DNA of 64,000 bases from Verrucomicrobiales bacterium (lineage in GTDB: Bacteria; Actinomycetota; Acidimicrobiia; Acidimicrobiales; SHLQ01), in NCBI GenBank assembly GCA_047638715.1, contig JBLIMK010000006.1, positions 2,617 to 66,616 on the forward strand, in the 5' to 3' direction. Of the stretch, positions 3,118 through 46,034 are shown piece by piece. Position numbers and translations under genes: made by a program. A model generated the notes under the pieces. It was given only the letters and a program-made list of their open reading frames with translations. It was not told where the DNA came from and ran no database searches. The stretch's first letter is position 1. Every line of letters begins with the position of its first letter.

Positions 3118-4869
3118 TTACCAATACTCTTCGAAATGGATGTTTCCGGGGTGGTTACGCCGATCGATCGTGAAACCGCGCTCCACCAGTAACTCGATCA
3201 CGCCGGTGGTCTCAGGAAATACCACGGCACCGTCTTCCTCTTCGGGTAGCCCGATCATTGCGGGGTTGCCGCACAGGAACGCATGCGTCTTCGCCGGGTC
3301 GATCGAGCCGCCGAGCACCAGCTCGATATCGCCGTCACGAATGAGGTCTTGCAAGTATCTCTTTGGCACCTCAGCTTCGCGTGTCGGCATTGGGAGGTAG
3401 TGATAGTTCTGGAATCGCTCCTCCAACCGTCGGTGAGCCTCGAGATAACCGAGGTCTTGCCAATTGCGCACCGTCACGGTCGAGATGATCGGTCCGGTGT
3501 GTCCTTTCCGAAGCAATTCGGTAACCATCGAGTTGTGCGGAGCTTCACCGGTGCCCGTCGCAAAGAACACGATTGCATCTTCGGGGTTCTCGACGGCGTT
3601 TAGCGTGTAGCGCCCAGCAACCTTTGGTCCGAGGTAGATGCGATCACCGACCTGCTTTTGGGCCAGCCTCGGCGTCAACGCAGAAACGTGAACCTCGTCG
3701 GCGGGTACGAGCACGATGTAGAACTCGAGTTCTTCAGTGTCGGGAGGAGCGAGATATCCAGACCCCTCAAACATCGAGTGCGAGATCGAATACGACCGAC
3801 GGATGAGCTTGATCCATTTCGCGTCGATATCGGGATCGGCGAGGTTGTCGACCCGATCTTCCCAGTAGCCCAACCCGAGCGAGGCGTATTGGCCGGGAAG
3901 ATGCGATGTGTCGCCGTGGTCGGGTCGGACGCGCAGCACCCACAGGTCGGAATGTCGTTGTTCGAATGCGGTGATCGTGGCGTTGTAGTTCTCTTCTCGA
4001 AGCTCGCTGATCGCGGACTCGTGACGAACGCGACGATGTACGACCGATGGCGGCTCGACCACCTCGAGTTCCGGGAAACATGCTGCGGCCAGCAACGTGC
4101 CGACCTCCCACGAATGCCCGTTCGGGACGTCGACGCCGTCTTCGGGGGCCCCGTCGAACCACAGCTTCCCGCTATCGATGGCGGCTTGGGTCACGTTGAG
4201 TTCAGCGACCGTTGGTCGGGTACGCGTCGACGCAAACACGATGTGGTCGAACTCGAGATCGGGCGTACGACGGTCGTTGAAGAAGGCGATCGGAAACTCG
4301 CCGGAGTGTCCAATCTCATCGGGAATGGAGCGGTAGAGCACCGTGACTCGCCGTTCACGCTCCAATCGACGAAGCACCGCATCGGCGGCAGGAGCGAGGA
4401 GGCCGGGGTCCATTCCGCCAGCAGCGAACACGACACCTGCGCCCGCTGCGGCGACCTCTGCCACAAGTTCGGCCGCGTGATTCGTGTGTCCGACCACGAG
4501 GATGTCCCGGTCGTTCAGCCACCCCGGTAGCGCATCGACCGTCACATTCTCCGAAAGCGTCGCTGCCATCGGCGGAGTCCACTCAGGATCTCGATGGCGC
4601 AAGGCGACAAGGCAGCCCCTTGTTCGGTAGGTCCGCTGGTCGGTGACCACGATGACGAAAGCCTCGTCTGCATCGATGCTGACCAGCTGTTCGCCATACC
4701 CAACTTCGACCTGATTCTCCGGAACGAGTTCGGGAAACGCCACGGAGGCCCGGGGCTCGATCACTCGCACTTTGGTCAATCCCGACCGGAGTGATGAGAT
4801 GGCGACGGAGAGTCCGCCGGCGGTCCCTCCGATCACAATGAGGTCGTAATCGGAGCCCTGGTCAGCCAT
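3118..4869 (-). CDS. Two-domain flavoprotein: FAD/NAD(P)-binding oxidoreductase domain fused to a ferredoxin-NADP+ reductase module
   Basis: N-terminal dinucleotide-binding motif DLIVIGGTAGGLSVA. The C-terminal half has FNR motifs RSYSISHS (RxYS FAD site), FFATGTGEAPHNSM (NADP site) and a bacterial-FPR-like terminal EEYW. Confidence 0.75.
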   Translation of the reverse strand: MADQGSDYDLIVIGGTAGGLSVAISSLRSGLTKVRVIEPRASVAFPELVPENQVEVGYGEQLVSIDADEAFVIVVTDQRTYRTRGCLVALRHRDPEWTPPMAATLSENVTVDALPGWLNDRDILVVGHTNHAAELVAEVAAAGAGVVFAAGGMDPGLLAPAADAVLRRLERERRVTVLYRSIPDEIGHSGEFPIAFFNDRRTPDLEFDHIVFASTRTRPTVAELNVTQAAIDSGKLWFDGAPEDGVDVPNGHSWEVGTLLAAACFPELEVVEPPSVVHRRVRHESAISELREENYNATITAFEQRHSDLWVLRVRPDHGDTSHLPGQYASLGLGYWEDRVDNLADPDIDAKWIKLIRRSYSISHSMFEGSGYLAPPDTEELEFYIVLVPADEVHVSALTPRLAQKQVGDRIYLGPKVAGRYTLNAVENPEDAIVFFATGTGEAPHNSMVTELLRKGHTGPIISTVTVRNWQDLGYLEAHRRLEERFQNYHYLPMPTREAEVPKRYLQDLIRDGDIELVLGGSIDPAKTHAFLCGNPAMIGLPEEEDGAVVFPETTGVIELLVERGFTIDRRNHPGNIHFEEYW

Positions 4870-10547: not shown

Positions 10548-11396
10548 TCACACGACGTCGCGGAGCTCCTCCGACAATGCGGTCGCCCCCTCTAAAACAT
10601 CGTCTTCTCCGCGGTGCTCGTCGGACAGGATCGCGATCATCTGTGTTGCCCGAAGCCGGATCTTCGACCAGCGTCGGCTGTCGAAGCCGAACGGTGTTCG
10701 CACGTCGGACAACACCTCTGCCTTCCTAACCATCGAGATCGTCGCCTTGGCATCCCCGCCGTTTTTGACGAGTTTGTTCGCCAGAACGCGCACGTCGCCT
10801 AACAGATCGTTTAACGCGAGTCCTTCGATTACCTGTGAAGCCTCGCCGAGCTCATCGTCGATGGCGATGCGTTCGGTCACCTGTTCGATGATCTCGTCGG
10901 CCTGTTCCTCGTCCTCTTCGGCAATGACCAGCTCTCCTTCAGCGGAGAACTCGTGGGCGATTCCTGCCAGCCCTAACGCGTCGACGAGCGCCGACTGTGC
11001 CTCGGCGGTCCAATCGTCCATGCCGTAGCCAATCTTGTCGACGTCGGGATCGAGGATTGGTCCATCGGCCGTTTCGGCTTGCTCGACCAAACCATCGACT
11101 CGGTCTTCATCGACTTCTAGGACGATGAGGACTGCGCCTTGCCAACCGTGGCTGATTCCTTCACCGGTCAGCAACCCTTCGAGCATTCGCCGAGCTTCAA
11201 ACGACCATTCGTAGAGCTCGTAGGCGACTTGTGCTTCGTCCTGGCCGCCGACTTCCTCTGGCGGTGTTGGCTTGTCTTCGACCAGCCCGACCCCACACTC
11301 CAAACACTCGGTGACATCTTCGATGTATTCGCGGGAGCATTGGAAGCAATACATGGTTGACATGGCACCGAAAGCTACTCTCTCCATTGCGGTCAC
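10548..11396 (-). CDS. Hypothetical acidic protein with N-terminal zinc-ribbon
   Basis: CFQCSREYIEDVTECLECG (CxxC...CxxC) near the N-terminus, followed by a very acidic D/E-rich body. Good coding bias. The start may be the internal MSTMYC. Confidence 0.6.
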   Translation of the reverse strand: MTAMERVAFGAMSTMYCFQCSREYIEDVTECLECGVGLVEDKPTPPEEVGGQDEAQVAYELYEWSFEARRMLEGLLTGEGISHGWQGAVLIVLEVDEDRVDGLVEQAETADGPILDPDVDKIGYGMDDWTAEAQSALVDALGLAGIAHEFSAEGELVIAEEDEEQADEIIEQVTERIAIDDELGEASQVIEGLALNDLLGDVRVLANKLVKNGGDAKATISMVRKAEVLSDVRTPFGFDSRRWSKIRLRATQMIAILSDEHRGEDDVLEGATALSEELRDVV

Positions 11397-11461
11397 GTCG
11401 GAGCGGGAGCTGCCGATAAAAATAGTGCCGTTTCGAATCTCGCGGTATCACAGGAGACGAT

Positions 11462-12436
11462 ATGTCTGAGCGAACAAATCCCGACCGGAACCTGGCCCTC
11501 GAACTCGTGCGGGTGACCGAGGTTGCGGCGCTCGCCGCGTCACGCTTCATGGGCCGAGGCGACAAAGAAGCTGCCGATGGTGCAGCGGTCGATGCTATGC
11601 GGACCCAGCTATCGGTCGTCGCAATGAACGGCACCGTGATCATCGGCGAGGGCGAGAAGGACGAGGCGCCGATGCTCTTCAACGGCGAACGCATCGGAAA
11701 TGGAGAGCCACCCGAAGTCGATATTGCGGTCGACCCGATCGACGGTACGACGCTCACTGCGCTCGGCCGCGCAAATGCGCTCGCCGTCATAGCGGCATCG
11801 GAGGGTGGCTCGATGTTCGATCCTGGCCCGCTTGTTTACATGGAAAAGATCGCGGTCGGACCCGACGCCGCCGGCGCCATCGACATCACGCGCTCCCCCA
11901 CCGAAAACCTGCAATCGATCGCTGAAGCGAAGAACCAGCCAATCTCCAACCTGACGGCCGTCATCCTCGACCGAGATCGTCATGGAGAGCTGATCAAGGA
12001 AGTCCGCTTGGCGGGGGCAAGAATTCGGTTGATCCCCGATGGAGACGTCGCCGGAGCAATCTCGACCGCCTGGCCCGACTCCGGAGCTGACGTGCTGTTC
12101 GGTATCGGCGGCACGCCCGAGGGTGTCATCTCCGCTGCTGCACTGCGTTGCATGGGTGGAGAACAGCAAGGACTTCTGTGGCCCCGGAACGAAGCGGAAC
12201 GGAGCGAGGCAATCAACGCGGGCTACGACCTCAAGAGGGTCCTGCACATCGAGGACATGGTCAGTTCCGACAACTGCTTTTTCGCCGCCACGGGAATCAC
12301 CGATGGGGATCTCCTCAAAGGTGTGCATTTCGAAGAGGGCGTCGCCAAGACGCAATCACTCGTCATGCGGTCCAAGTCCGGCACCGTCCGTCTAATCGAG
12401 GGACATCACCAGCTCGAGAAGCTCTCAAGGCTTTAA
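11462..12436 (+). CDS. glpX: Class II fructose-1,6-bisphosphatase
   Basis: Full-length GlpX-like sequence: [60 protein letters not shown]. Confidence 0.92.
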
Positions 12437-25993: not shown

Positions 25994-26851
25994 CTACGCG
26001 AGCGTCTCGGCGATACCTCGTGCGAGCGCCTCGGTAACGTCGATGTCTCCATCGACCGTGCTGCTCCCGGGAACGAGGTTTGCGACGGTGACCAGCAGTC
26101 CCCCTGCGATGATCTGCGCAGTCGACTCGTCGGTTACAAAACCCTTGACGCTGCCATTCTCGAACTGGCGAGCGCTCGGGTCATCGTCGAAACGACCGCT
26201 GATCGTATCGATATAGGTCGGGTCGGCGACATCCCAGCTCACGCCAACGAACCATACGTGGAGATCGCTGAACCACTCGCACGAGTTTGGGCTTCTGGAG
26301 ACCTCATTGAACTCGACCGACGTATCTGAGCCAAGCCCCGAAGGTAGCTGCGCGAACACTCCTGCATCCGCGGACCAACCGCTGATCAATCCACCGAGTT
26401 CGTTCGCTGAGTACAACTCACATGGACTGTCGAGATTGATCGCGGCAAGCTCCTCGTCGAAGTCTGGGGTGCCCGACCCAGGTTCGGGCTGATCACCCTC
26501 GGCGTCAGGGTCGACGTTGGCAGCCTCGACCAGCTGATCTGTAGCGGGTGGTGACCGCGTAACCGCCACAGTTGTTGATGTTGTCCCGATGGTGGTCGTG
26601 GTCGTGGTGTCGCCCTCTTGAACGTTGGACGGTTCGGTCAGCACATCGTCGGACTCGTTCGTCTGGGAGTCGCTCGGGTCAGCGCTCGAATTAGTTTGCC
26701 CGGCGTCATCGACTACCGACCTGGAGTTCGAACCGTCAGCCGCGACCTGTGCGTCGTCGGGTCCATTGTCGCTGCTGCAAGCCGAGGCGAGCAAAGCCCC
26801 TGCGAGCAAGATGGAGGGGGCCAGGTGGCGCCGCCGCTGTCGTTCGGTCAT
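25994..26851 (-). CDS. Hypothetical lipoprotein with T/D/S-rich linker
   Basis: MTERQRRRHLAPSILLAGALLASAC (lipobox), a low-complexity acidic/Thr linker, then a Cys-containing globular domain. Start set at ATG 26851 so that it does not overlap the next gene. Confidence 0.65.
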   Translation of the reverse strand: MTERQRRRHLAPSILLAGALLASACSSDNGPDDAQVAADGSNSRSVVDDAGQTNSSADPSDSQTNESDDVLTEPSNVQEGDTTTTTTIGTTSTTVAVTRSPPATDQLVEAANVDPDAEGDQPEPGSGTPDFDEELAAINLDSPCELYSANELGGLISGWSADAGVFAQLPSGLGSDTSVEFNEVSRSPNSCEWFSDLHVWFVGVSWDVADPTYIDTISGRFDDDPSARQFENGSVKGFVTDESTAQIIAGGLLVTVANLVPGSSTVDGDIDVTEALARGIAETLA

Positions 26852-35790: not shown

Positions 35791-35826
35791 GCCGCCAGTC
35801 AAAGCGTGTAACGCTTGACGAGCGGC
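35791..35826 (-). terminator. Candidate intrinsic terminator downstream of the peroxidase gene
   Basis: Imperfect hairpin GCCGCCAGTCAAAGCG-TGTAA-CGCTTGACGAGCGGC. On the minus strand it is followed by the U-rich TTTGCCGCGTTTTA. Confidence 0.45.
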
Positions 35827-35847
35827 TCTACCTAGAGGGCGGCTTTT

Positions 35848-35871
35848 GCGGGAGGCCCGAGGGCCTCCCGC
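35848..35871. terminator. Perfect GC-rich hairpin (10-bp stem)
   Basis: GCGGGAGGCC-CGAG-GGCCTCCCGC, 32 nt beyond the peroxidase stop codon. There is a T4 run on the plus-strand 5' side only, so directionality is unclear. Confidence 0.4.
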
Positions 35872-35902
35872 AGGAGTCGCAATTACTGCTTCAACTAGCG
35901 GG

Positions 35903-36862
35903 TTATGGCAACTCGCAGTTGAAGACCGTGTCGACACCTGCATCGGTGATGCAGGTGTCATTCGCTTGAGGGCCACCGTTTACGGTGTCTGCGACACCGT
36001 CGTTGGCAATGATGGTGTCATCGCCACCGAAGCCGATCAAGAGATCGGCTCCGAGACCTCCGTCGATGGTGTCGTTACCAAGCTGGAGCACGTTGCCGTC
36101 TCCGAAGATCTGGTCAGCGTCGACGCCACCGGTGATGTTGTCATCGCCAGAACCAGCATTGATGATGTTGAGTCCAGACGGATCGACAATCGTGTCTTGG
36201 TCCTCGTTGCCCCAAATCCGGTCATCTCCGGCGCCGCCATCGATGCTGTCGTTGCCGAATTGTCCGAAGAGGAGGTCATTGCCACCGTTTCCGAAGATGA
36301 TGTCGGCTCCCGTGATGCCGTAGATGATGTCGCCATCAGCACCGCCACTCAGGAAGTCGTCTCCAGGGCCACCATTGATGATGTCCGCACCAGCGTCACC
36401 GTTGATGGTGTCGATGCCGTCGAGGCCGATGATGAGGTCCATACCTGGACCACCAGTGATCGTGTCGTTGCCGCCCTGACCAAAGATGTCGTCATCGCCA
36501 GCACCGCCGTCGATGACGTCACTGTCGGGACCACCGTTGAGGATGTCAGCGCCATCGCCACCGGTGATGTTGTCGGCGCCAGTGCCAGCAACGATCGTGT
36601 CGAGGCCAGGGCCTCCGTGAAGCTCATCGTCGCCCGCAAGGCCGAAGATGGAGTCATCACCAAGACCACCGAAGGCAACGTCGTTGCCTGGGCCTGTGTT
36701 GATGGTGTCGTTGCCACCTTCGCCACAGATGGTGTCGTTGCCCCCGAGGGACACGATCACTTCACCAGCAGAAGTACCGAGGATGACATCGTCACCACCG
36801 GTTGCCTCGTTACCTGGACCAACCGGCAGCGACATATCGAATGTCACGAGCAGGCCATTACA
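35903..36862 (-). repeat. Cys-bracketed RTX module, copy A (inverted with respect to 43033-43980)
   Basis: A 319-codon module from RCNGLLVTF to NCELP. The last ~212 codons align without gaps to the protease tail, at roughly four-fifths identity by manual alignment, and nucleotide similarity is visible. Confidence 0.85.
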
Positions 36863-39800
36863 TCGCACTCCCGTGATGAAATCACCATCGGTGAAGCGCA
36901 GGATCTCGATGTTGCGGAGCGTGTCCATACCATCATCGAGGTTTCCGTCTTGGTTTGCACCGTCTCCACGGGCGTGCTCGACGATAATTCGGTCACCCAC
37001 GAAGGTGACGTCGTAGTCGGTCTGCGGTCCCTGGAAGATGGCGACATCGACGTCGCCGCCTGGGCCTGGATCGACGATTTCACGCACGATCTGGATTTCT
37101 CCGGGATCGAGAGTTCCAGCGAAGATCGCAGCCTGCATATCGAGTGCCGCATCCCAACGAGTACCACCGTTGCTCGGGGTACCACCGGTGATCGCTGGTG
37201 ATGGGTGCCACAGGTAGACATCGAGGAAGACGTCGCCGTCGATGATGTCGTTCTGGCCTCGACCCTCGATGAGGTCGCTGCCTGCTCCGCCGAGGATGAT
37301 GTTGCCGTCCTCGAACAGCGTGGTACCGGCTGGCAGCACATCGACAAGACCATCGAACAGTGCGATAGCAGTGGTGTCGAGCGACTGAAGTCCAAGCGCA
37401 GGAACACCCTGTGAATCATCACCCTTCAACTGATCAGCGCCAGGAGTACCCGAGATACCCTCGACCGCTGCGAAACGATCGTCCTGGAATGGTGGTGGGA
37501 GAAGCAGCGTCTGGTTCAAGTCAGCGCCCTCGGCAAGAATCACCCAGTCGAAGCCCTTCAGGCCTTCGAACCGGTCGATACCAGGGCTTTCCTTGAACAC
37601 ATCGTGTCCACCCTCACCATGCATGCGGTCGTCGCCGCCTTGTCCATCCATAACATCGTTGCCGCCGAAGGCACTGAGTTCGAGTGGGTCGAAGTCGTCA
37701 GCCTGAATATCGGCTGCACCTCCACCACCCTCGATCCAGTCGTCGCCTTCGCCACCGATCAGCACTGCTGCATTGAAGCCGCCGTGCAGGATGTCGTTGC
37801 CAGGTCCTGCGAGGGTCTCGTTGAGATCCGCACCGGAAAGGATGTAGTCAGCGCCGGGTCCACCCTGGAGCAGGTTCTCACCTGGGCCACCAGAGATGGC
37901 ATCGTCGCCAGGACCACCCTTGATGTCATCATCGCCGGACGAGTCCGTAATGATGTCATCGCCGAGGCCGCCGACGATGTTATCGCCACCGCCGCCGCCT
38001 TCGATACGGTCGTCGCCGTCGTTGCCACGAATCGTGTCATCGCCGTCGCCAGACTCGAGGACGTCGTTCGCAGGCGAACCGATCCAGTTGGTGTGCTCGT
38101 CTCCGGCCACACCATCTGCAATGGCTTGTGCGCTGAGAGTGCCTGGACCAAACTTGACGTTTCCGTTTGCCTCGCGGGCAAGAAGGTCCGTCTCGTCGTA
38201 GGTCGTCGCAGGATCATCCACGATCCCCGTGGGGTTCGTCTGTGCGTTCATGTCGAACGTGAAATCTGGACGACTGAACACGTTTGCCGGCAAACCTTCA
38301 GCCGTGGTGTTGCGCTGAGCCAACTCGGACAACGAGTTGCCTTCCATCTGCGCAAGCAAGTTCGTTCCGGCTAGACGCCAGAGGTAGTAGAACCTGTCGC
38401 CGTCCTGAAGGTTCTCCATCTGCGTCTTGAAGATGAAGTCGAACGTGGTACCGAGCATTGCGCCGGTATCAAATTCGAGCTTCTCCGCAAGGCCACCCAT
38501 CCAGAGATCCACGTTGTCGAGGCCACCCTTGTCGCCATCGTATGGCGCAGCAGCGCTGAGGAAGTCGGCGGTGTCTGCAGGAGCGGCAAGGCCGCCATTG
38601 ATCATCGCGTCAGCGAGTGACCGACGTGAGGACATCGTTCCAACACCCGAACCATCATCGAATGTCGCGAGGTCTGCATGCGTGCCATAGGCAGCAATGA
38701 AGTTCACGATCGAGTCAGGGTTCTTGAGCTCGAACCGGAAGTCGGCCCAGTTGTCATACGGAGCAAGGTCCGGACGAAGTCCGTTTGCCCAGAATGTCTC
38801 ACGGACCGTGTTCAAACGCGCAACGCCGTTGTCACGACCACGTGCGATGTTGATCGCAGGAAGGTCGAGCGGAAGACCAAGAAGGTTATTCCGCAGCGCT
38901 TCGGTGATGAACTCGTCAATTTCCTGTCCAACCTGTGTCACGCCACCACGCCAAAGCTGACCAGCAGCTTCTTCGGGAAGGATCGAGGCGCCGAGTGAAT
39001 CCTTGCGGAATTCGATCGGGTTCACGAATGCGTCGATCAGCGTAAGGCTGTTGTCGGTGCCATCAGCCTCGAATCGAACGACGTTCTCGTTGAGCATCGA
39101 ATGACCAAAGCGGTACACGGCGTGTGCAAACTCAGCGGAGATCACTGAATTGATCGTCGTGTCGTAGTTGACAAACGCGTGAACCTGCGGGCTGATCGTT
39201 CGAGCGAATTCCTCGAACGCCAAGTGCTGATATTCCATTTCGGTGACAAACTTCGCCGCCTGGAACAGACGTTCACCATTTCCAAATTCGCCAGCAAGTC
39301 GTGCACCGGTGAATTCAGAATCGAGTCCCGCTGCTGTAGCGACGGCAAGGATGTCGTCCACCAAACGGTTGTGCTCAGCATGGAACACGTGGTGAATCGA
39401 AGTCAGGACGAGGTTCTCGTTTGCACGGCCGTCACCAGCAATGAAGTGAGCGCCAAGCATCTCATCGTCGTAGGTGCAGGGATCGCCATCGTCTCCGAAG
39501 AGGCCTTCCGCACCAAGATCGAGGTCAGCGGTCTGTGCGACCTCTGGTGTGCCTGGGTTCATGTCAGCATCGCAAGTACCTGGGTTTGCGTGATGCGCAA
39601 TGTCAAGCACGAAGCCATGACCTGTACGCATTGCATCAACAGGAATAGCGATACCTCCGCCAGCGGTGTTGCCCTCGACGAGACCGCCGGGGGTAACAAT
39701 CTGTGGAAGACCACGAAGCGGTCCAGGAATGAAGTTGCCGTACACGTCGGTCGCGAGGAGCGGCACGTCGTGCAGGTCATGATCTTCAAGCGTGATGCCA

Positions 39801-40873
39801 AGAACGGTGCTGGATTGTGCTTGCACGTTGTCCCAGTTCGACATACCGCCGTCAGCGTGCTCGAGCAAGAAGCCCGTCGACACTGGCAATGGACCAGCGG
39901 TGTAGTCGCGCACGAACACCTGATGTGAAGGATGCGACGTGTAGGTCTGGTTCTGGTCGACGTAAGGAGTCGTCTTGTTCAGCGGATCAGTTCCGTCTTG
40001 TCCACGGCTCAGAACCATGAAGTTGGTTTGACCACCCGGGACGAACAGAGGATCGTCCGCATTTAGCGGCATGTAGATCGGAGCACCGTTCTTCGTCGTG
40101 AGGTCGAGACCGTGATCGAAGAACTGACCGAAGTACGTCAACATGTCGTTGAACGGAGCCGAAAGTCCGCCATCGGGTGCGGAGTTTTCGATGTTGATGA
40201 GGCCACCTGGATGCACGGTGATGCCATCTGGCAGCAGTGCGGGGACTCCACCGGGATGACCAGCGACAACCGGGTTGCCCGTCGTCTGATCGGAGATCAA
40301 GTTACTGATCGTTCGAGGCGTGCTGTCCTGCACCCATAGACCAGCGCCGGGGTTGGCGTATGTGGTCAGCGCACCATTTACATTCGGTGGCGGTGGAGGG
40401 AATGGAAGAGCGAGCACTTCGGCATCCACAAAGGACGGCGCTATGAGCTCTTCAAATGGTTGATCGGCTGCGCCCCAAGTCTCGTTGCCAACAAACAAGT
40501 TGTTGCAGGTACCGTCGAGTACACGAAGGCCAAGGGGTTGGGTCAAGTCGCCTTGCGGGACCTGGTTTGGACCGTTGCCGATAAGAGTTGCGCATGGATT
40601 TGCGGGCGTCGACGTCTGCACATGCGCTTCTGAAACCCGGATCTGCTGGAGAATAAACTCCACGTCTTGCCCGGTGATGGTGAAGTCCGCACCGATAGGA
40701 GCGGCTGCATCGCCGTTCCCGACGAAGTCGAACCCTTCCCATGGTTGGCGCTCGGTTTGCGCCGATGCCCCCGTCGCGAGCACTGGCACAAATAGTGCCA
40801 ATGCTGCGAGGAGCCCGATGCTTCGCAGCCAATGACGACGAAGCCCTCCACTTGTTGAATTCATAATGTCCAC
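35903..40873 (-). CDS. Secreted animal-type haem peroxidase fused to RTX calcium-binding repeats (peroxicin-like)
   Basis: Signal peptide (LRSIGLLAALALFVPVLATGASA). Peroxidase-cyclooxygenase motifs YFGQFFDHGLD (distal His), GDGRANENLVLTSIHHVFHAEHNRL and AVYRFGHSMLN (proximal His). Two blocks of GGxGxDxxx nonapeptides, ending NDTCITDAGVDTVFNCELP. The ATG at 40864 has the better SD (GGTGGA) than GTG 40873. Confidence 0.92.
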   Translation of the reverse strand: MDIMNSTSGGLRRHWLRSIGLLAALALFVPVLATGASAQTERQPWEGFDFVGNGDAAAPIGADFTITGQDVEFILQQIRVSEAHVQTSTPANPCATLIGNGPNQVPQGDLTQPLGLRVLDGTCNNLFVGNETWGAADQPFEELIAPSFVDAEVLALPFPPPPPNVNGALTTYANPGAGLWVQDSTPRTISNLISDQTTGNPVVAGHPGGVPALLPDGITVHPGGLINIENSAPDGGLSAPFNDMLTYFGQFFDHGLDLTTKNGAPIYMPLNADDPLFVPGGQTNFMVLSRGQDGTDPLNKTTPYVDQNQTYTSHPSHQVFVRDYTAGPLPVSTGFLLEHADGGMSNWDNVQAQSSTVLGITLEDHDLHDVPLLATDVYGNFIPGPLRGLPQIVTPGGLVEGNTAGGGIAIPVDAMRTGHGFVLDIAHHANPGTCDADMNPGTPEVAQTADLDLGAEGLFGDDGDPCTYDDEMLGAHFIAGDGRANENLVLTSIHHVFHAEHNRLVDDILAVATAAGLDSEFTGARLAGEFGNGERLFQAAKFVTEMEYQHLAFEEFARTISPQVHAFVNYDTTINSVISAEFAHAVYRFGHSMLNENVVRFEADGTDNSLTLIDAFVNPIEFRKDSLGASILPEEAAGQLWRGGVTQVGQEIDEFITEALRNNLLGLPLDLPAINIARGRDNGVARLNTVRETFWANGLRPDLAPYDNWADFRFELKNPDSIVNFIAAYGTHADLATFDDGSGVGTMSSRRSLADAMINGGLAAPADTADFLSAAAPYDGDKGGLDNVDLWMGGLAEKLEFDTGAMLGTTFDFIFKTQMENLQDGDRFYYLWRLAGTNLLAQMEGNSLSELAQRNTTAEGLPANVFSRPDFTFDMNAQTNPTGIVDDPATTYDETDLLAREANGNVKFGPGTLSAQAIADGVAGDEHTNWIGSPANDVLESGDGDDTIRGNDGDDRIEGGGGGDNIVGGLGDDIITDSSGDDDIKGGPGDDAISGGPGENLLQGGPGADYILSGADLNETLAGPGNDILHGGFNAAVLIGGEGDDWIEGGGGAADIQADDFDPLELSAFGGNDVMDGQGGDDRMHGEGGHDVFKESPGIDRFEGLKGFDWVILAEGADLNQTLLLPPPFQDDRFAAVEGISGTPGADQLKGDDSQGVPALGLQSLDTTAIALFDGLVDVLPAGTTLFEDGNIILGGAGSDLIEGRGQNDIIDGDVFLDVYLWHPSPAITGGTPSNGGTRWDAALDMQAAIFAGTLDPGEIQIVREIVDPGPGGDVDVAIFQGPQTDYDVTFVGDRIIVEHARGDGANQDGNLDDGMDTLRNIEILRFTDGDFITGVRCNGLLVTFDMSLPVGPGNEATGGDDVILGTSAGEVIVSLGGNDTICGEGGNDTINTGPGNDVAFGGLGDDSIFGLAGDDELHGGPGLDTIVAGTGADNITGGDGADILNGGPDSDVIDGGAGDDDIFGQGGNDTITGGPGMDLIIGLDGIDTINGDAGADIINGGPGDDFLSGGADGDIIYGITGADIIFGNGGNDLLFGQFGNDSIDGGAGDDRIWGNEDQDTIVDPSGLNIINAGSGDDNITGGVDADQIFGDGNVLQLGNDTIDGGLGADLLIGFGGDDTIIANDGVADTVNGGPQANDTCITDAGVDTVFNCELP

Positions 40874-40994
40874 CCGCTTGCTTGGATTGCCCTCGATGAT
40901 TTACCAAGAGTCCGAAGCGCAGAAGAATCCCGCTGGCGTACACAAAGACAGGTGTGCTGTCCATTGCGTTCGCCCGCGGATGCCCTCAGCACCT

Positions 40995-41092
40995 ACTAAA
41001 ACAAGAATGTAGAACGTATTCCCACCATACGTCAATTTAAAATAACTAAAGGCCACCGTGCGCGCTACCGATACTAAATCTTCACTAAATCT
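40995..41092. promoter_or_regulatory. AT-rich divergent control region with four ACTAAA hexamers
   Basis: ACTAAA occurs at 40995, 41045, 41073 and 41084. The last two are ACTAAATCT direct repeats offset by 11 bp. This is the lowest-GC stretch of the peroxidase/protease intergenic region. Confidence 0.4.
41008..41016. promoter_or_regulatory. TGTAGAACG box (copy 1 of 3)
   Basis: The same GTAGAACG octamer recurs at 48199 and 50713, each time upstream of an RTX-enzyme transcription unit. Confidence 0.35.
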
Positions 41093-41107
41093 GCGCTCTC
41101 TGTGAGA

Positions 41108-41115
41108 TCACGTGA
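41108..41115. promoter_or_regulatory. Perfect palindrome TCACGTGA
   Basis: 8-bp palindrome about 80 nt upstream of the protease start codon. Confidence 0.25.
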
Positions 41116-41196
41116 CAATCGGGTCATTCGAACCCCTTTCGCCACTGATCGTTGCACGTCTACCCTTAAAGCACACGAAGGGTGAGGTGTTGGGAT

Positions 41197-43980
41197 ATGA
41201 CGGTGTTGTGGTGGTCTAAGCGTGTGAGTTTCGCGTTGTTGCTCGCGCTCGCAGTAATGCTGGTCGCGCACGGACCGGCATCCTCGGAAGAAGCCGACGC
41301 AGCACTCCTCATCGATGGCACCGTGGTTCTTCCCGACGCGTCGCAAGCCAACGTCGATGGAGTGCAATTGTCTGCCGCTCTCAGCGAGCAACTCGCCGTG
41401 AGTGACCATGTTCGATTCGTCGATGTCGATGTCGACGTCGTGCGACGCGAGCTCGAATTTGGCGTCCTCGCCATCCAAGTTGCGCCAGATGCTGCAATTC
41501 AGGTCAAGACCGTATTCGGTGAAGACCTCGTGCAGGGCGCGACAACATGGACAGCCGAAGGCGCTGATGGTTCGGCGCTTGCGCTGGTCACTCGGGGTCG
41601 AGCGCTCACCGGTGAACTACGGCTCGGTGAACGCCAGTGGGGAATCGCACAAGTCGATGGATCGCTGCACGTGGTCTTTGAACACTCGCCAACAGGACAA
41701 GACCCGGCAGCCGAGCGCTTGCAAGAGGACGGACAGCCCACCCTCGTCCTGGCACCGCTCCCCGACGGTGTTGCACGGTTCACAGAGGACATCACCCACG
41801 CAGAGGACATCTTGGCTATTGGAGCGCGGGAACCCGATGCACCCACTGCAGAAGCACTGCCCGGCCAAACTCAGGCAGATGCACCAGCCGTCGCTGCGAT
41901 GGTCGCAACGTCCGTGATCGATGTGATGGTCGTCTACGACAACACGGCGCTCGCCTTACATGGATCGAATGCCGCCATCGAAAACCTGATCATCGCGAAT
42001 ATCGCCTCGTCCAACGCCACGCTCGCCACATCGGGTGTTGCGACCTCAGTCAACCTGGTCCACATAGGACACATCGCCTACACAGGGTCGGGAAGCTCGT
42101 CCAACGATCTCACTCGACTTCGGAACAAATACGACGGCCACATGGACAGCATTCACGTAACCCGCGACGCGGTGGACGCAGACCTTGTGACCCTCGTGAG
42201 CGAACTCATCGACGGGTTCTGCGGTCGGGCAAATCTGCTTCAGGAACTCCCAAACCAAAATACCGACGATGAAGCCTTCGGTGTAGTTGGAGCTGGGTGT
42301 CTCACAAGCAGCACATACATCCACGAGATCGGCCACAACATGGGGGCCGCTCACGACGATGCGAACCTCGGCGGTTTCACCGGGGTGCAACCGCACTCGC
42401 GAGGATGGGTAGACGTAGCCAACAACTTCGTAACCGTGATGTCGTACGCGAACGGCGCAAACGGCTGCTCGGGTTGCACGACCATCAGCCAGTTCTCGAG
42501 CGATACCGAATTGTTCGCTGGGTTCGCCACGGGTGATGCCGACCATGCGAATGCATCGACGCTCAATGCAACGAGCAGTGGTATTGCTGCCTACCGACCG
42601 GACCCCTGTCCGAACCCGATAAACGACGACTACCCAGTTCGCATCGACCTCGGATCCTCGAGTCTCGTGTCCACTCCCGGAACCAACGTGTGCGCCTCGA
42701 TCGAAGACCTCGAGACCTACTTCATCGGTGATGAGCCCGTGGAGTCGGTTTGGTACGAGTGGACTGCACCATTCGCCGGGACGGCCCGATTCAGTACGTG
42801 CGACGCGTCCACCACCTTCGACACCACCATCACAATATTCGACGACCACGAGTTCTTCTCTGCGCTGTCCGTCGTTGCCCACAACGACGATGCTGGAGCG
42901 GCGTGCACCATAGACCCCACCCACAGCGAGGCACTGACGACGGTCACCAATGGCCAGGTCCTTCGCTTCAAAATCGATGGCGATGCGGCGGCGACGGGAA
43001 CGTTCGCGTTGACGGTTACTGTCGACACGACGTGCAACGGCCAAGCGGCGACCGTCTACGTCGACCGTGGAGACGTCGCGACATCGGGCGACGATGTGAT
43101 CATCGGGACTGTGAACGCCGACGCCATTAACGCCCTAGACGGGAACGACATCGTCTGTGGAATGGCAGGCGACGACGTCATCAACTCGGGCCCGGGCGAC
43201 GACCAAGTGTTCGGCGGCGATGGCAACGACACCATCTTCGGTGTAGCCGGCAACGACACCCTCAACGGCGACGCTGGCCAGGACACGTTGTTGGGTTTCG
43301 CCGGCAACGACACCCTCAATGGTGGCGATGACAACGATCTCATCAATGGTGGTCCTGACAATGACGTGCTCGACGGCGGCGCAGGCGACGACAGCATCTT
43401 TGGTCAGGGCGGTAACGACACGATCAGCGGTGGTCCGGGTATGGACCTCATGATTGGTCTCGACGGCATCGACACCATGAACGGTGATGCTGGTGCGGAC
43501 ATCATCAACGGTGGTTCCGGAGACGACTTCTTGAGTGGCGGTGCCGATGGCGACACCATCTTTGGCATCACTGGCAATGACATGATCACTGGCGACGGAG
43601 GTGCTGACTTCCTGTTCGGACAAGTTGGAAACGACACCATCGATGGTGGTGCCGGAGCAGACAACATCTGGGGCAACGAAAACGACGACATCATCACCGA
43701 TCCGTCAGGTGCCAACATCATCAATGGTGGTGCCGGCAATGACAACATCACCGGTGGCGTCGATAACGATCAGATCTTCGGTGACGGCAATGTCGGCCAG
43801 CTCGGTGATGACATCATCGACGGAGGTCTTGGACCCGACCTGTTGCTCGGCTTCGGTGGCGATGACACCATCACTGCCAATGACGGTTTCGCAGACACCG
43901 TGAACGGTGGCCCGACCTTGAACGACACCTGCCTGGTGGATGCGGTCGTCGACACCGTCTTCAACTGCGAGTTGCCCTAA
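41197..43980 (+). CDS. Secreted reprolysin/ADAM-type zinc metalloprotease fused to RTX calcium-binding repeats
   Basis: Signal peptide (MTVLWWSKRVSFALLLALAVMLVAHG). Metzincin motif HEIGHNMGAAHD. A pre-peptidase-C-terminal-like beta domain, then a 315-codon RTX module ending NDTCLVDAVVDTVFNCELP. SD AAGGGTGAGG lies upstream. Confidence 0.9.
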   Translation: MTVLWWSKRVSFALLLALAVMLVAHGPASSEEADAALLIDGTVVLPDASQANVDGVQLSAALSEQLAVSDHVRFVDVDVDVVRRELEFGVLAIQVAPDAAIQVKTVFGEDLVQGATTWTAEGADGSALALVTRGRALTGELRLGERQWGIAQVDGSLHVVFEHSPTGQDPAAERLQEDGQPTLVLAPLPDGVARFTEDITHAEDILAIGAREPDAPTAEALPGQTQADAPAVAAMVATSVIDVMVVYDNTALALHGSNAAIENLIIANIASSNATLATSGVATSVNLVHIGHIAYTGSGSSSNDLTRLRNKYDGHMDSIHVTRDAVDADLVTLVSELIDGFCGRANLLQELPNQNTDDEAFGVVGAGCLTSSTYIHEIGHNMGAAHDDANLGGFTGVQPHSRGWVDVANNFVTVMSYANGANGCSGCTTISQFSSDTELFAGFATGDADHANASTLNATSSGIAAYRPDPCPNPINDDYPVRIDLGSSSLVSTPGTNVCASIEDLETYFIGDEPVESVWYEWTAPFAGTARFSTCDASTTFDTTITIFDDHEFFSALSVVAHNDDAGAACTIDPTHSEALTTVTNGQVLRFKIDGDAAATGTFALTVTVDTTCNGQAATVYVDRGDVATSGDDVIIGTVNADAINALDGNDIVCGMAGDDVINSGPGDDQVFGGDGNDTIFGVAGNDTLNGDAGQDTLLGFAGNDTLNGGDDNDLINGGPDNDVLDGGAGDDSIFGQGGNDTISGGPGMDLMIGLDGIDTMNGDAGADIINGGSGDDFLSGGADGDTIFGITGNDMITGDGGADFLFGQVGNDTIDGGAGADNIWGNENDDIITDPSGANIINGGAGNDNITGGVDNDQIFGDGNVGQLGDDIIDGGLGPDLLLGFGGDDTITANDGFADTVNGGPTLNDTCLVDAVVDTVFNCELP
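43033..43980 (+). repeat. Cys-bracketed RTX module, copy B (inverted with respect to 35903-36862)
   Basis: Runs from TCNGQAATVYV to NCELP. See copy A. Confidence 0.85.
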
Positions 43981-43988
43981 CGCGCTCG

Positions 43989-46034
43989 CTAGCCCTCACA
44001 GGCAATACGGGCTACGACCGACGTACACCTATCGCTTCCAGGTCCGCCCCAGGCAAAGTTGGTGCCCGCGCCGCCGCGCAAGTTGTCGTCACCCTGCCCG
44101 CCGTACAGTTCATCGTTTCCGCCATAGCCGAACAAGCGGTCGCGACGGTCGCCTCCGTAGAGCGTGTCGTTTCCGCCATTCCCGACGAGGCGATCTCCCC
44201 CACGGCCACCACGAAGAAGGTCGTTGCCTCCGCCTCCCTCGACATCGTCGAGACCAGGGCCAGCGAGTACGAGGTCGTCCCCGTCACCGGCGCGCACAAC
44301 ATCGGAACCCCAGCCGGCATTGATGATGTCGGCCCCGGACCCACCATTGATTCGATCTGCGCCGCCACGCCCACAGATGATGTCGTTGCCGCCCAATCCG
44401 TCGATGATGTCCGGACCGCCCGTGCCGACGATGACATCGTCACCGTTCGTACCGATGAGGCCGGTCGTCGTTGCGAGCCGACCCTGGCAGGATTCGGTCG
44501 GCGGCAGTGAGTTCGTTACGAGATAGATGAAGCCGTTGCGTTTGCTCGAAATGTAGAGCTCGCCGTCCGGCCCCTGCCCAAACCGTGCATCGGCTCGCCC
44601 CGACCCGTCGTAGGTCGCTGCATCGTTGAACACATCCTGCAGACTCGTGCGAGGCAACGCAGCGGTAGTGGGATCACCATCGTGGTCGAAGGTGATCGCG
44701 ACTCGACCGGTAGGCGCCTGTGTGAGGTCTCCGGGAGCATCGCGAGCCGGATCGTCTGGATCGAGCAGTGTCACCGCGGCGGCCATCTCCTCGAGCGTCG
44801 AGTGAAAGAGCTTTCCCGTCTTCGGGAAGTCGCTGTAGAAGTACTGCCCGGACAACGCCGAACCATTGTCTACGACGTACCCGCCAGCGATTGCTTGCCC
44901 CGAGAGCCCCGAACCTCGCGTTCCCTCGTGACCGTACTGTGCTGCCGGGTACGTGTAGCCGTTCGCGGCCTCGTCGGCCGGGAGCGGTGCAATCCCGTTG
45001 AGCAGGTCGCCGGTCGGGAGGTGAACAAAGGTTCCTTCACGCTCCGACCAGCCGTAGTTGGCCCCGCCCACGATGACGTTTACTTCTTCGACGTTGTCCC
45101 GTCCCGCCTCCGCAGCGATCAGATGGACCGCACCGCCGTCATCTCGAGCGAACGCCAGGTGATGTGGATTCCGATGGCCGAGCGACCACACCTCATCCAG
45201 CATCACCGGGTCACCGATGAACGGGTTGTCCTCGGGCACCAGATAGGGATCGAGGCCCGACCGCCGCGGATCGATGCGCAGGATCTTGCCGAGCGCGTCG
45301 TTCTTCTGACCACCGCCAGCCGTTGCTGACTGCACGCTTCCATCGCCGTGAGCAACGTACAGGTTCCCGAAGTCATCATCGCCTGGCTCGGCAAATGGAT
45401 TGAAGGCGATCTGCTTGATCGGATGGTCGTATACCGGCATGCCAACGCGAAAAACCTGGCGATAACTCGAAGGATCGATTTGGCCCGTGTTCAGATCCAT
45501 CGTCCACTCGATGAGCACACCGTCGGCGACGATCGGGTTGGCTGCATCGCTCAGATAGTCATCGGGATCCGGGGACGTGGGTCGCCGTTCCATCACCGAT
45601 GTGTACAGCAGGCCGTTCGCCGCGAACCGCGGATGAAACGCGACCGATCGAAGGCCCCCATGGAAGATGCTCGTGTTGTCCAGACGACGTCCGGTTGCAG
45701 CCAACATCGCGATCTTCACATCGAAGAAAACCGATGCGGTTGCGGTGCGCCCAGATTTCGATATCTCGTAGATCTTGCCGTCATAGTCCTCGACGACGAA
45801 GAACCGATCACCAGATGTAGCGAACTGGTTGAGGCGAGGACGACCGAGCGCCGAATTCGGGATCTGTACGTACGGAGATAACTCGACGACGACCCCTCGA
45901 TCGACGATCGGTAGTAAGACCGGGTTGTCCGCCGACGCATGCGTCACCGTCGCGCCGACGAGCGCTACTGACAGACACGCAGCCCCCGCAGCGGAGGCCC
46001 ATCGTTTCGTACGAGGTCTCTTGCTGAGGTCCAT
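43989..46034 (-). CDS. Secreted PQQ-dependent sugar (glucose/sorbosone) dehydrogenase beta-propeller fused to RTX repeats
   Basis: Signal peptide (…LVGATVTHASA). SGDH motifs HGGLRSVAFHP, LGKILRIDP, SLGHRNPHHLAF and GANYGWSEREG. RTX tail entered via CQGRLATTTG…GDDVIVGT…GNDIICG and ending GSDRCTSVVARIACEG. Confidence 0.88.
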   Translation of the reverse strand: MDLSKRPRTKRWASAAGAACLSVALVGATVTHASADNPVLLPIVDRGVVVELSPYVQIPNSALGRPRLNQFATSGDRFFVVEDYDGKIYEISKSGRTATASVFFDVKIAMLAATGRRLDNTSIFHGGLRSVAFHPRFAANGLLYTSVMERRPTSPDPDDYLSDAANPIVADGVLIEWTMDLNTGQIDPSSYRQVFRVGMPVYDHPIKQIAFNPFAEPGDDDFGNLYVAHGDGSVQSATAGGGQKNDALGKILRIDPRRSGLDPYLVPEDNPFIGDPVMLDEVWSLGHRNPHHLAFARDDGGAVHLIAAEAGRDNVEEVNVIVGGANYGWSEREGTFVHLPTGDLLNGIAPLPADEAANGYTYPAAQYGHEGTRGSGLSGQAIAGGYVVDNGSALSGQYFYSDFPKTGKLFHSTLEEMAAAVTLLDPDDPARDAPGDLTQAPTGRVAITFDHDGDPTTAALPRTSLQDVFNDAATYDGSGRADARFGQGPDGELYISSKRNGFIYLVTNSLPPTESCQGRLATTTGLIGTNGDDVIVGTGGPDIIDGLGGNDIICGRGGADRINGGSGADIINAGWGSDVVRAGDGDDLVLAGPGLDDVEGGGGNDLLRGGRGGDRLVGNGGNDTLYGGDRRDRLFGYGGNDELYGGQGDDNLRGGAGTNFAWGGPGSDRCTSVVARIACEG

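Follow-up and report, generated by a model that had tools for sequence, protein, structure and literature searches.

In the stretch of DNA analysed here (the window; 64,000 nt of contig JBLIMK010000006.1 in assembly GCA_047638715.1), a haem peroxidase gene and a gene for a reprolysin-like protease stand head to head, and the outer, 3' ends of the two form a long inverted repeat. We think it probable that this repeat is simply two copies of one C-terminal tail module, that their likeness stems from an old exchange between the tails, and that the repeat is a passive by-product of how the genes are arranged. The module is a lineage-specific cassette of ~315 residues, carried by at least eight otherwise unrelated exoproteins of the Sec type, and its two copies here are inverted only because the genes that carry them are transcribed divergently. 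The extra likeness of their DNA would stem from an old homologous exchange between the tails that was not reciprocal, either gene conversion or the replacement of a whole tail. This exchange would have taken place after the split from one metagenomic relative (below, the 64% relative) and before the split from another (the 87.5% relative), and it would have been followed by uniform divergence under purifying selection (synonymous divergence, dS, ~0.6; ratio of nonsynonymous to synonymous divergence, dN/dS, ~0.3). The same process may well be recurrent: a congeneric genome carries a distinct tail type on eight or more of its genes, and another genome has a perfect 1.27-kb shared tail. The genes and their tails are laid out as follows.

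35903..40873, minus strand: haem peroxidase gene, 1656 amino acids (aa), from its open reading frame (ORF) and translation; An_peroxidase core, internal RTX blocks and the C-terminal tail module
41182..43980, plus strand: reprolysin-like (M12B/metzincin) protease gene, 932 aa, with the C-terminal tail module; an alternative ATG lies at 41197
35903..36862, minus strand: peroxidase tail module, the left arm of the repeat; 315 codons from the junction cysteine (..RCNGLLVTF..) to ..DTVFNCELP and the stop; DNA-level similarity at ~35897-36775
43033..43980, plus strand: protease tail module, the right arm; 315 codons from the junction cysteine (..TCNGQAATV..) to ..DTVFNCELP and the stop; DNA-level similarity at ~43108-43986

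A repeat search returned one long inverted pair, 35897-36750 and 43133-43986, whose arms are 854 nt long, ungapped, 78% complementary and separated by 6382 nt. Both arms continue for 6 nt beyond the stop codons (TAAC(C/G)CGCT), and five of these six nucleotides are shared. When the two genes are anchored at their stops and compared without gaps, identity stays at 63-92% per 60-nt block over ~870 nt and then drops suddenly to a background of 25-35%; the longest perfect run between the arms is 27 nt. An earlier reading of this DNA (the original prediction) had described a repeat of ~0.95 kb: the long inverted repeat at the 3' ends is indeed there, but similarity at the DNA level covers ~870 nt rather than 950. 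The module limits that it proposed, 35903-36862 and 43033-43980, are precisely those set by the conserved junction cysteine (..C-N-G..) and the stop codon. In the first 25 codons of the module there is no DNA-level similarity, the proportion of synonymous differences (pS) being 0.78 and the codon identity at identical residues, 30%, lying at the level of chance. For the last ~212 codons a gapless alignment at ~80% aa identity had been anticipated, and we measured 80.7%; over the last 288 codons protein identity is 72%. To call the modules near-identical was thus too strong, given 78% identity of nucleotides and 72% of amino acids over ~290 codons. The two strings quoted as shared each occur exactly twice, with one copy in each arm and nowhere else.

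The likeness of the arms exceeds what the amino acid constraint alone would impose. Over the last 285 codons, Nei-Gojobori (NG86) counts give a pS of 0.42 and a proportion of nonsynonymous differences (pN) of 0.16 (dS ~0.62, dN ~0.18), which corresponds to a dN/dS of ~0.3. Where the residues are identical, the codons are identical in 72% of cases, against 47% expected from the codon usage of both genes. Within the genome, the window tails differ from each other with a pS of 0.44 and from all other tails with a pS of 0.59-0.81; the other tail pairs are given at 0.59-0.88, and the pair C152/C53 at 0.50. A control pair from the same tail family (C33/C56) also shares 72% of its amino acids but has a pS of 0.66 and only 68% nucleotide identity. 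Saturation of the synonymous sites had been named beforehand as the outcome that would speak against a likeness at the DNA level, and the sites are unsaturated (pS 0.44; 72% against 47% identical codons). On the other hand, the conversion tracts that had been expected along the repeat were not found: when the codons are shuffled, windowed pS varies just as much (permutation p ~0.5), and module codons 26-95 do not differ significantly from codons 96-315 (p 0.19). Judged by these counts, both tails appear to have diverged uniformly under purifying selection since their exchange.

The age of the likeness comes from comparison with relatives. The 64% relative is metagenomic and represented by Logan contigs from two independent assemblies, L066 (SRR23272297) and L067 (SRR23272288), and the 87.5% relative by a contig, L068, that carries the 3' part of the protease gene and its junction to the neighbouring gene, a GSDH-type dehydrogenase; G008 is a complete single-contig genome, presumably a long-read assembly, of the same genus as the genome of the window. 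In the 64% relative, both catalytic parts are 70% identical to ours in amino acids and the synonymous sites are saturated (pS 0.60-0.71), and the protease tail is 52% identical to the protease tail of the window and 56% to its peroxidase tail. The RTX tail of the dehydrogenase serves as a control in the same comparison: at 78-83% identity it is as conserved as its catalytic part, so RTX tails are not intrinsically fast-evolving. A maximum-likelihood tree groups the protease tails of the window and of the 87.5% relative with each other and then with the peroxidase tail of the window (support 98/99), and places the protease tail of the 64% relative outside, within a polytomy of tails of this genome's type. 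A constraint that unites the three protease tails costs 18.7 log-likelihood units (p 0.016 in the approximately unbiased, AU, test), and one that also includes the protease tail of G008 costs 242 units (AU p 3.5e-23). The pair is older than splits that already show synonymous saturation, but its tails are unsaturated and each other's closest, which argues that an exchange between them did happen. Toward the 87.5% relative, DNA identity is 87.5%, gapless and even over the catalytic part and the tail, and the variable sites of the tail are private to that relative in 44 cases, to the window's protease in 42 and to the peroxidase in 143; such a symmetric three-taxon pattern argues against any exchange since this split. 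With the likeness younger than the split from the 64% relative, the last homogenisation falls between the two splits. The proposal of gene conversion between the tails is therefore borne out as a past event, as the tails group by genome and the AU test rejects orthology, but not as a process that has left tracts or continued after the 87.5% split.

Across genomes, identities are 52-76% among the tails of this genome, 55-83% among those of G008 and 38-48% between the two (gapped protein identities, used as one G008 tail, 'up25', has an indel). Tails are more similar within a genome than orthologous tails are between genomes and the likeness reaches synonymous and non-coding sites, both marks of concerted evolution; signs of exchange still going on are not seen. 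G008 has at least eight copies of its own tail type, 80-86% identical and spread over three chromosomal regions, and when genomes of 25 other species in the genus were searched, the tail type of our genome turned up in none of them, except for one match at 52%. These sequence comparisons suggest a genome-wide family under episodic concerted evolution, its members being exchanged or homogenised from time to time. A possible recent case comes from an Acidimicrobiia metagenome-assembled genome (MAG; GCA_050246915.1, contig JBFWVD010000006.1, here L069), where a peroxidase gene and a tandem downstream gene for an M36 (fungalysin-type) metalloprotease share a perfect direct repeat of 1,270 nt (L069:6925-8194 and 11020-12289). 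The repeat takes in 417 codons and the 17 nt that follow the stop, with a sharp 5' edge at the junction ..LCAGLAVTVDL, and, unless it is an artefact of assembly, it would be a young instance of the same process. The locus further represents another type of neighbourhood in which peroxidase and metalloprotease genes occur together.

Peroxidase tails of the close relatives were sought in two ways. A scan of metagenome contigs with the last 500 aa gave only matches of at most 41%, and a word-index search restricted to the tail found generic giant RTX proteins, none above 46%. In the 64% relative, both assemblies stop exactly where the peroxidase tail begins (L066:1-60 and L067:1-60). This shared contig end suggests a break induced by the repeat; a terminal k-mer shared between the contig end and the protease gene of the same relative was looked for and not found.

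The original prediction saw the repeat as bracketing the 8-kb unit in a special way. A tblastn search of the whole assembly (3.64 Mb in 169 contigs, 60.6% GC, 93% complete) with either tail speaks against this, the arms being just two members of a genome-wide set of eight or more tails. Eight full-length tails are colinear: the window pair and one each on contigs C33, C64, C152, C8, C56 and C53, these six being 55-62% identical to the window tails. Two tails on different contigs, C152:777-1664 and C53:9069-9911, are as alike as the window pair (77% of nucleotides, pS 0.50, 76% of amino acids), so neither adjacency nor an inverted arrangement is needed for such likeness. All eight open with the junction motif C-[NA]-G-x-x-[VIA]-T-[VI], contain the non-repeat landmarks IFGQGGNDT, WGNE..D..TDPSG and FGDGN..Q.GND, and finish with ..D.C..D...DT.F.C and a few further residues (NCELP, NCNP, FCEVLLP). 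Four cysteines are invariant in the alignment, as are the glycine and aspartate columns at a spacing of nine residues. The N-terminal parts are, by contrast, unrelated: the peroxidase, the reprolysin-like protease, an M10 matrixin, a CotH protein with LTD, a GSDH protein with PKD and LTD, an arylsulfotransferase with FN3, an ice-binding-like protein with LTD, and one ORF cut by a contig end. When contigs of genomes were scanned for the tail with near relatives masked, only generic RTX matches of at most 47% remained, from cyanobacteria and proteobacteria.

Structurally, the tail is predicted to be a discrete RTX parallel beta-roll module bracketed by cysteines. The PF00353 model recognises tandem GGxGxDxUx nonapeptide repeats in both proteins, and from an alignment of nine sequences AlphaFold2 gives a confident model of the protease tail (predicted local distance difference test score, pLDDT, 93.3; predicted TM-score, pTM, 0.87), which forms a continuous rod of 32 short strands with a period of nine residues. 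The best Foldseek matches of this model are the RTX domain of CyaA and the beta-helix of the Ca-dependent antifreeze protein MpAFP, with the low TM-scores expected for long rods. The conserved pattern of aspartates and glycines suggests that the tail probably binds calcium, and the cysteines may form disulfide caps. The route of export is likely to differ from that of classical RTX proteins, which as type I substrates lack an N-terminal signal peptide, carry an uncleaved secretion signal at the C-terminus and depend on a cognate ABC/MFP/OMF exporter. The N-termini of the peroxidase and the protease, basic and then hydrophobic, look like Sec signals by inspection, without a predictor, and by the same kind of inspection all tail proteins with a complete N-terminus start in a signal-peptide-like manner. 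Models for TolC/OEP (PF02321) and HlyD_3 (PF13437) have no match in the genome at its 93% completeness and do match control genomes, an ATP-binding cassette (ABC) exporter not having been searched for. Taken together, the signal peptides and the missing TolC and HlyD matches point to an RTX-type beta-roll that serves outside the type I secretion route, and the proteins do not look like type I secretion substrates.

The idea that the pair is maintained as a unit has held up rather well. Peroxidase and protease stand head to head, with a partly conserved spacer between them, in three lineages: this genome, the 64% relative and G008. In our genome the order is a six-gene polysaccharide block (minus), peroxidase (minus), protease (plus) and GSDH (minus), and in the 64% relative it is peroxidase (minus), protease (plus), the same six-gene block (minus) and GSDH (minus). 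The 8-kb unit thus lies to the right of the polysaccharide block in one and to the left in the other, with both genes together and in the same orientation (window 26000-46034 against L066/L067:1-17183), and the breakpoints of this change coincide with the outer tail ends. To the left of the peroxidase tail, the spacer in the window is weakly similar to the spacer between block and GSDH in the 64% relative. As far as gene order tells, the change of position supports a pair travelling as a unit, not an inversion. In G008, a spacer of 320 bp separates the protease (47% identical) from the peroxidase, which is 56% identical and split into two ORFs, and the tails of these two genes form an inverted repeat of their own (909 nt, 78%).

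Around this pair G008 has several further features. Its peroxidase is split at L025:7790-7860 (L025 being G008:C1:138000-157000) into overlapping ORFs of 701 and 1002 aa, by either a frameshift, making it a pseudogene, or an indel error of the assembly. The palindrome there runs beyond the tails, 3344-3876 against 13615-14147 of L025: the genes 3' of the peroxidase (422 aa, minus) and of the protease (285 aa, plus) share a C-terminal domain, inverted and 70-73% identical in nucleotides. A distant homologue of this domain is found beside the protease in the 64% relative and at 26006-26518 in the window.

The original prediction further offered the repeat as a substrate for inversion of the segment, and one could imagine a programmed or frequent flip of the 6.4 kb between the arms by which the tails are re-sorted or the pair is regulated. 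Since the arms align colinearly and in the same reading frame, a crossover would disrupt neither gene, and the 8-kb unit is placed differently with respect to the polysaccharide block in the 64% relative and in our genome. We nevertheless consider a working switch very unlikely. RecA-dependent recombination has a minimal perfect match of ~20-30 nt and falls steeply, in a log-linear manner, with divergence, by orders of magnitude at divergences such as this one; arms that differ by 22% and whose longest perfect run is 27 nt are a poor substrate for present-day homologous inversion, which should be rare. The promoter region lies inside the segment, so inversion would switch nothing, and the tails that it swaps are equivalent, so that neither expression nor protein type would change. 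Orientation is identical in our genome, in L066/L067 and in G008, and L068, which covers a single junction, has the same protease-GSDH junction; the predicted orientation differences in related strains were accordingly absent from every relative examined. The protease tail is 84-94% identical to that of the 87.5% relative along its full length, with no chimeric break, and no recombinase gene is found among the mapped neighbours within ~9 kb, a survey narrower than the whole window. That there was no exchange of DNA at all, the likeness being left over from an old duplication by the amino acid constraint of RTX repeats and by codon bias, seems to us less probable still. RTX repeats are of low complexity, a GC-rich codon bias lifts chance identity, and most other tail pairs of the genome are synonymously saturated while 55-72% identical in amino acids. 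Yet the control pair C33/C56 displays what constraint alone yields, and the window tails go well beyond it in their shared codons (72% against 47% expected), in a likeness that runs 6 nt past both stops, and in a grouping by genome for which the AU test rejects orthology; the dehydrogenase control, in turn, removes fast evolution of tails as a way out.

A more serious, if still improbable, alternative is that each gene obtained its tail separately through domain shuffling, with a third paralog that bears the tail as the source, or that it was the protease tail of the 64% relative that was replaced, so that the likeness in the window reflects a shared donor. Shuffling would fit the sharp 5' junction (C-[NA]-G-x-x-[VIA]-T) conserved in all eight genes and in L069, as well as the quite different C-termini of peroxidase cores elsewhere (Ig-like, FN3, Big_5), and the position of the 64% relative's tail in the polytomy is compatible with a replacement there. 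However, the window tails are mutually nearest by a wide margin (pS 0.44 against 0.59-0.81) and no third donor is visible in the genome; with both genes carrying a homologous tail in every lineage seen, any replacement would formally be homologous conversion. Among peroxidase orthologues from other Acidimicrobiia families, L026, L027 (G047) and L028 (G033), at 53-54% identity, end in Ig-like (SbsA_Ig/Big_5-type) domains and not in a cysteine-capped RTX tail; all three adjoin multicopper-oxidase-like genes.

Several points weigh against an old tail-to-tail exchange as we describe it. With the contigs of the two closest relatives ending at the tail start, their peroxidase tails were not recovered, so that the exchange may have run in either direction and the peroxidase side may have been exchanged again. 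Without G008 the AU test is moderate (p 0.016), and the clade that it concerns was named after the first tree had been seen. The orthology of the pairs in our genome and in G008 rests on their arrangement and on 47-56% identity and, given the patchy occurrence of the peroxidase, transfer of the unit or out-paralogy could also account for it. The perfect repeat of L069 may be an artefact, and RecA-type conversion, calcium binding and disulfides are all inferred. Even so, two copies of one module, made alike by an old exchange, appear to us the best account: RecA-type conversion would be its plausible mechanism, and the present repeat would be a passive by-product and not a working inversion switch.

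The remaining features of the locus are the following.

43989..46034, minus strand: GSDH-type dehydrogenase gene, convergent with the protease gene, with its own short and different RTX tail
40874..41181, no strand: divergent intergenic control region, the spacer of the pair, with partly conserved blocks
35848..35871, minus strand: GC-rich hairpin with an 11-bp stem, ~32 nt 3' of the peroxidase stop, terminator-like

ORFs and Pfam agree with the predicted layout of a minus-strand peroxidase and a plus-strand metzincin head to head, with the dehydrogenase gene convergent. The peroxidase matches An_peroxidase (PF03098, 5.9e-60) and PF00353 (8.9e-61, in 15 stretches); its database version starts from an ATG at 40864 and is 1653 aa long, and P0015 is an identical protein. 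The protease matches Reprolysin_4/3/5 (1e-11 to 2e-9) and PF00353 (2.9e-43, in 10 stretches), and its NCBIfam match to a Mep72-like model (3.5e-25) stays under the cut-off of that model. The spacer is 308 bp long counted from the GTG starts and ~330 bp from the ATG starts. In an alignment, blocks such as AATGTAGAACGTA..CCAC..ACGTCAA.TT are common to this genome, the 64% relative and G008 (window 40990-41100; L066:4044-4414; L025:9927-10246), and a longer block just 5' of the protease start, CTTTC..CACT..CGTTGCA.G.CTAC.CTT...ACG.AGGGTGAGG, is found in this genome and the 64% relative. At the other end of the protease gene, its stop and that of the dehydrogenase are 8 bp apart, exactly as had been noted, an arrangement that the 87.5% relative retains; a terminator-like site or significant hairpin was looked for at this junction and none was found, in line with the claim that it leaves no room for a terminator. 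The region downstream of the peroxidase (35800-35935, minus strand) folds at -60.1 kcal/mol (z = -5.1), as well as which none of 200 shuffles folds; the hairpin has no U tract, and an A run follows it on the transcript strand. The neighbours within ~9 kb comprise glycosyltransferases, a sulfotransferase, Wzy, the dehydrogenase and an FG-GAP protein. A comparison of RpoC places the genome in the Acidimicrobiales, with 81% identity to Iamia and to Acidimicrobiales MAGs.

If read as the footprint of modular tail exchange and not as a genetic switch, the inverted repeat spares effort on the inversion hypothesis and points to what would be a general and little-described feature of Acidimicrobiia: unrelated Sec-secreted enzymes that carry one species-specific, cysteine-capped calcium beta-roll tail, the tail itself being occasionally re-homogenised. 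The more interesting question then is why each species has its own tail type on about eight exoenzymes, whether by neutral conversion or by co-evolution with a docking partner. It is conceivable, if doubtful, that the tail is a lineage-specific 'address' module that docks some eight unrelated Sec-exported enzymes, via calcium bridges, to a species-specific component of the envelope or matrix, for example a sulfated polysaccharide encoded on both sides of the island; selection for compatibility with this partner, in addition to any neutral conversion, would then account for both the species-own tail types and the repeated homogenisation across dispersed loci. Were the tail indeed a domain for retention or docking, this would account for the frequent occurrence of RTX repeats in monoderm Actinomycetota without type I secretion, and would make the tail a portable, calcium-dependent tag. 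RTX proteins in Actinobacteria without components of the type I system were already noted by Linhartova et al. 2010 (PMC3034196).

Compared with the RTX proteins of type I secretion (serralysin/AprA, HlyA, CyaA), the tails share the GGxGxD nonapeptides (PF00353), the predicted parallel beta-roll and the C-terminal position, and their structural matches include RTX blocks of CyaA and RTX lipases. They differ in the N-terminal signal peptides of their carriers, in a genome without a TolC/OEP or HlyD match, and in the invariant bracketing cysteines and the ending ..C..D...DTVFNC(E/N)(L)P. The arrangement also recalls invertible segments and shufflons, in which inverted repeats flank a segment of several kilobases; here, too, the arms lie within coding 3' ends and a flip would swap C-termini. 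The arms are, however, long and diverged instead of short and specific sites, no recombinase is found among the mapped neighbours, no second orientation has been seen, and the swapped tails would be equivalent. Bacterial gene conversion in general is said to be the subject of a review by Santoyo and Romero from 2005. By analogy, the closest known kind appears to be the concerted evolution of 3' segments among paralogous genes for surface or secreted proteins. In Helicobacter pylori, babA and babB reportedly show such concerted evolution of their 3' segments, by intragenomic gene conversion. As there, the paralogous 3' segments are closer within a genome than orthologues are between genomes, the functional 5' parts are distinct, and exchange is non-reciprocal and in frame. 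Unlike in the babA/babB type, the catalytic domains are unrelated, what is shared is an RTX beta-roll, the latest exchange lies far back (dS ~0.6) with no ongoing switching of the kind seen in antigenic variation, and the family spans at least eight loci.

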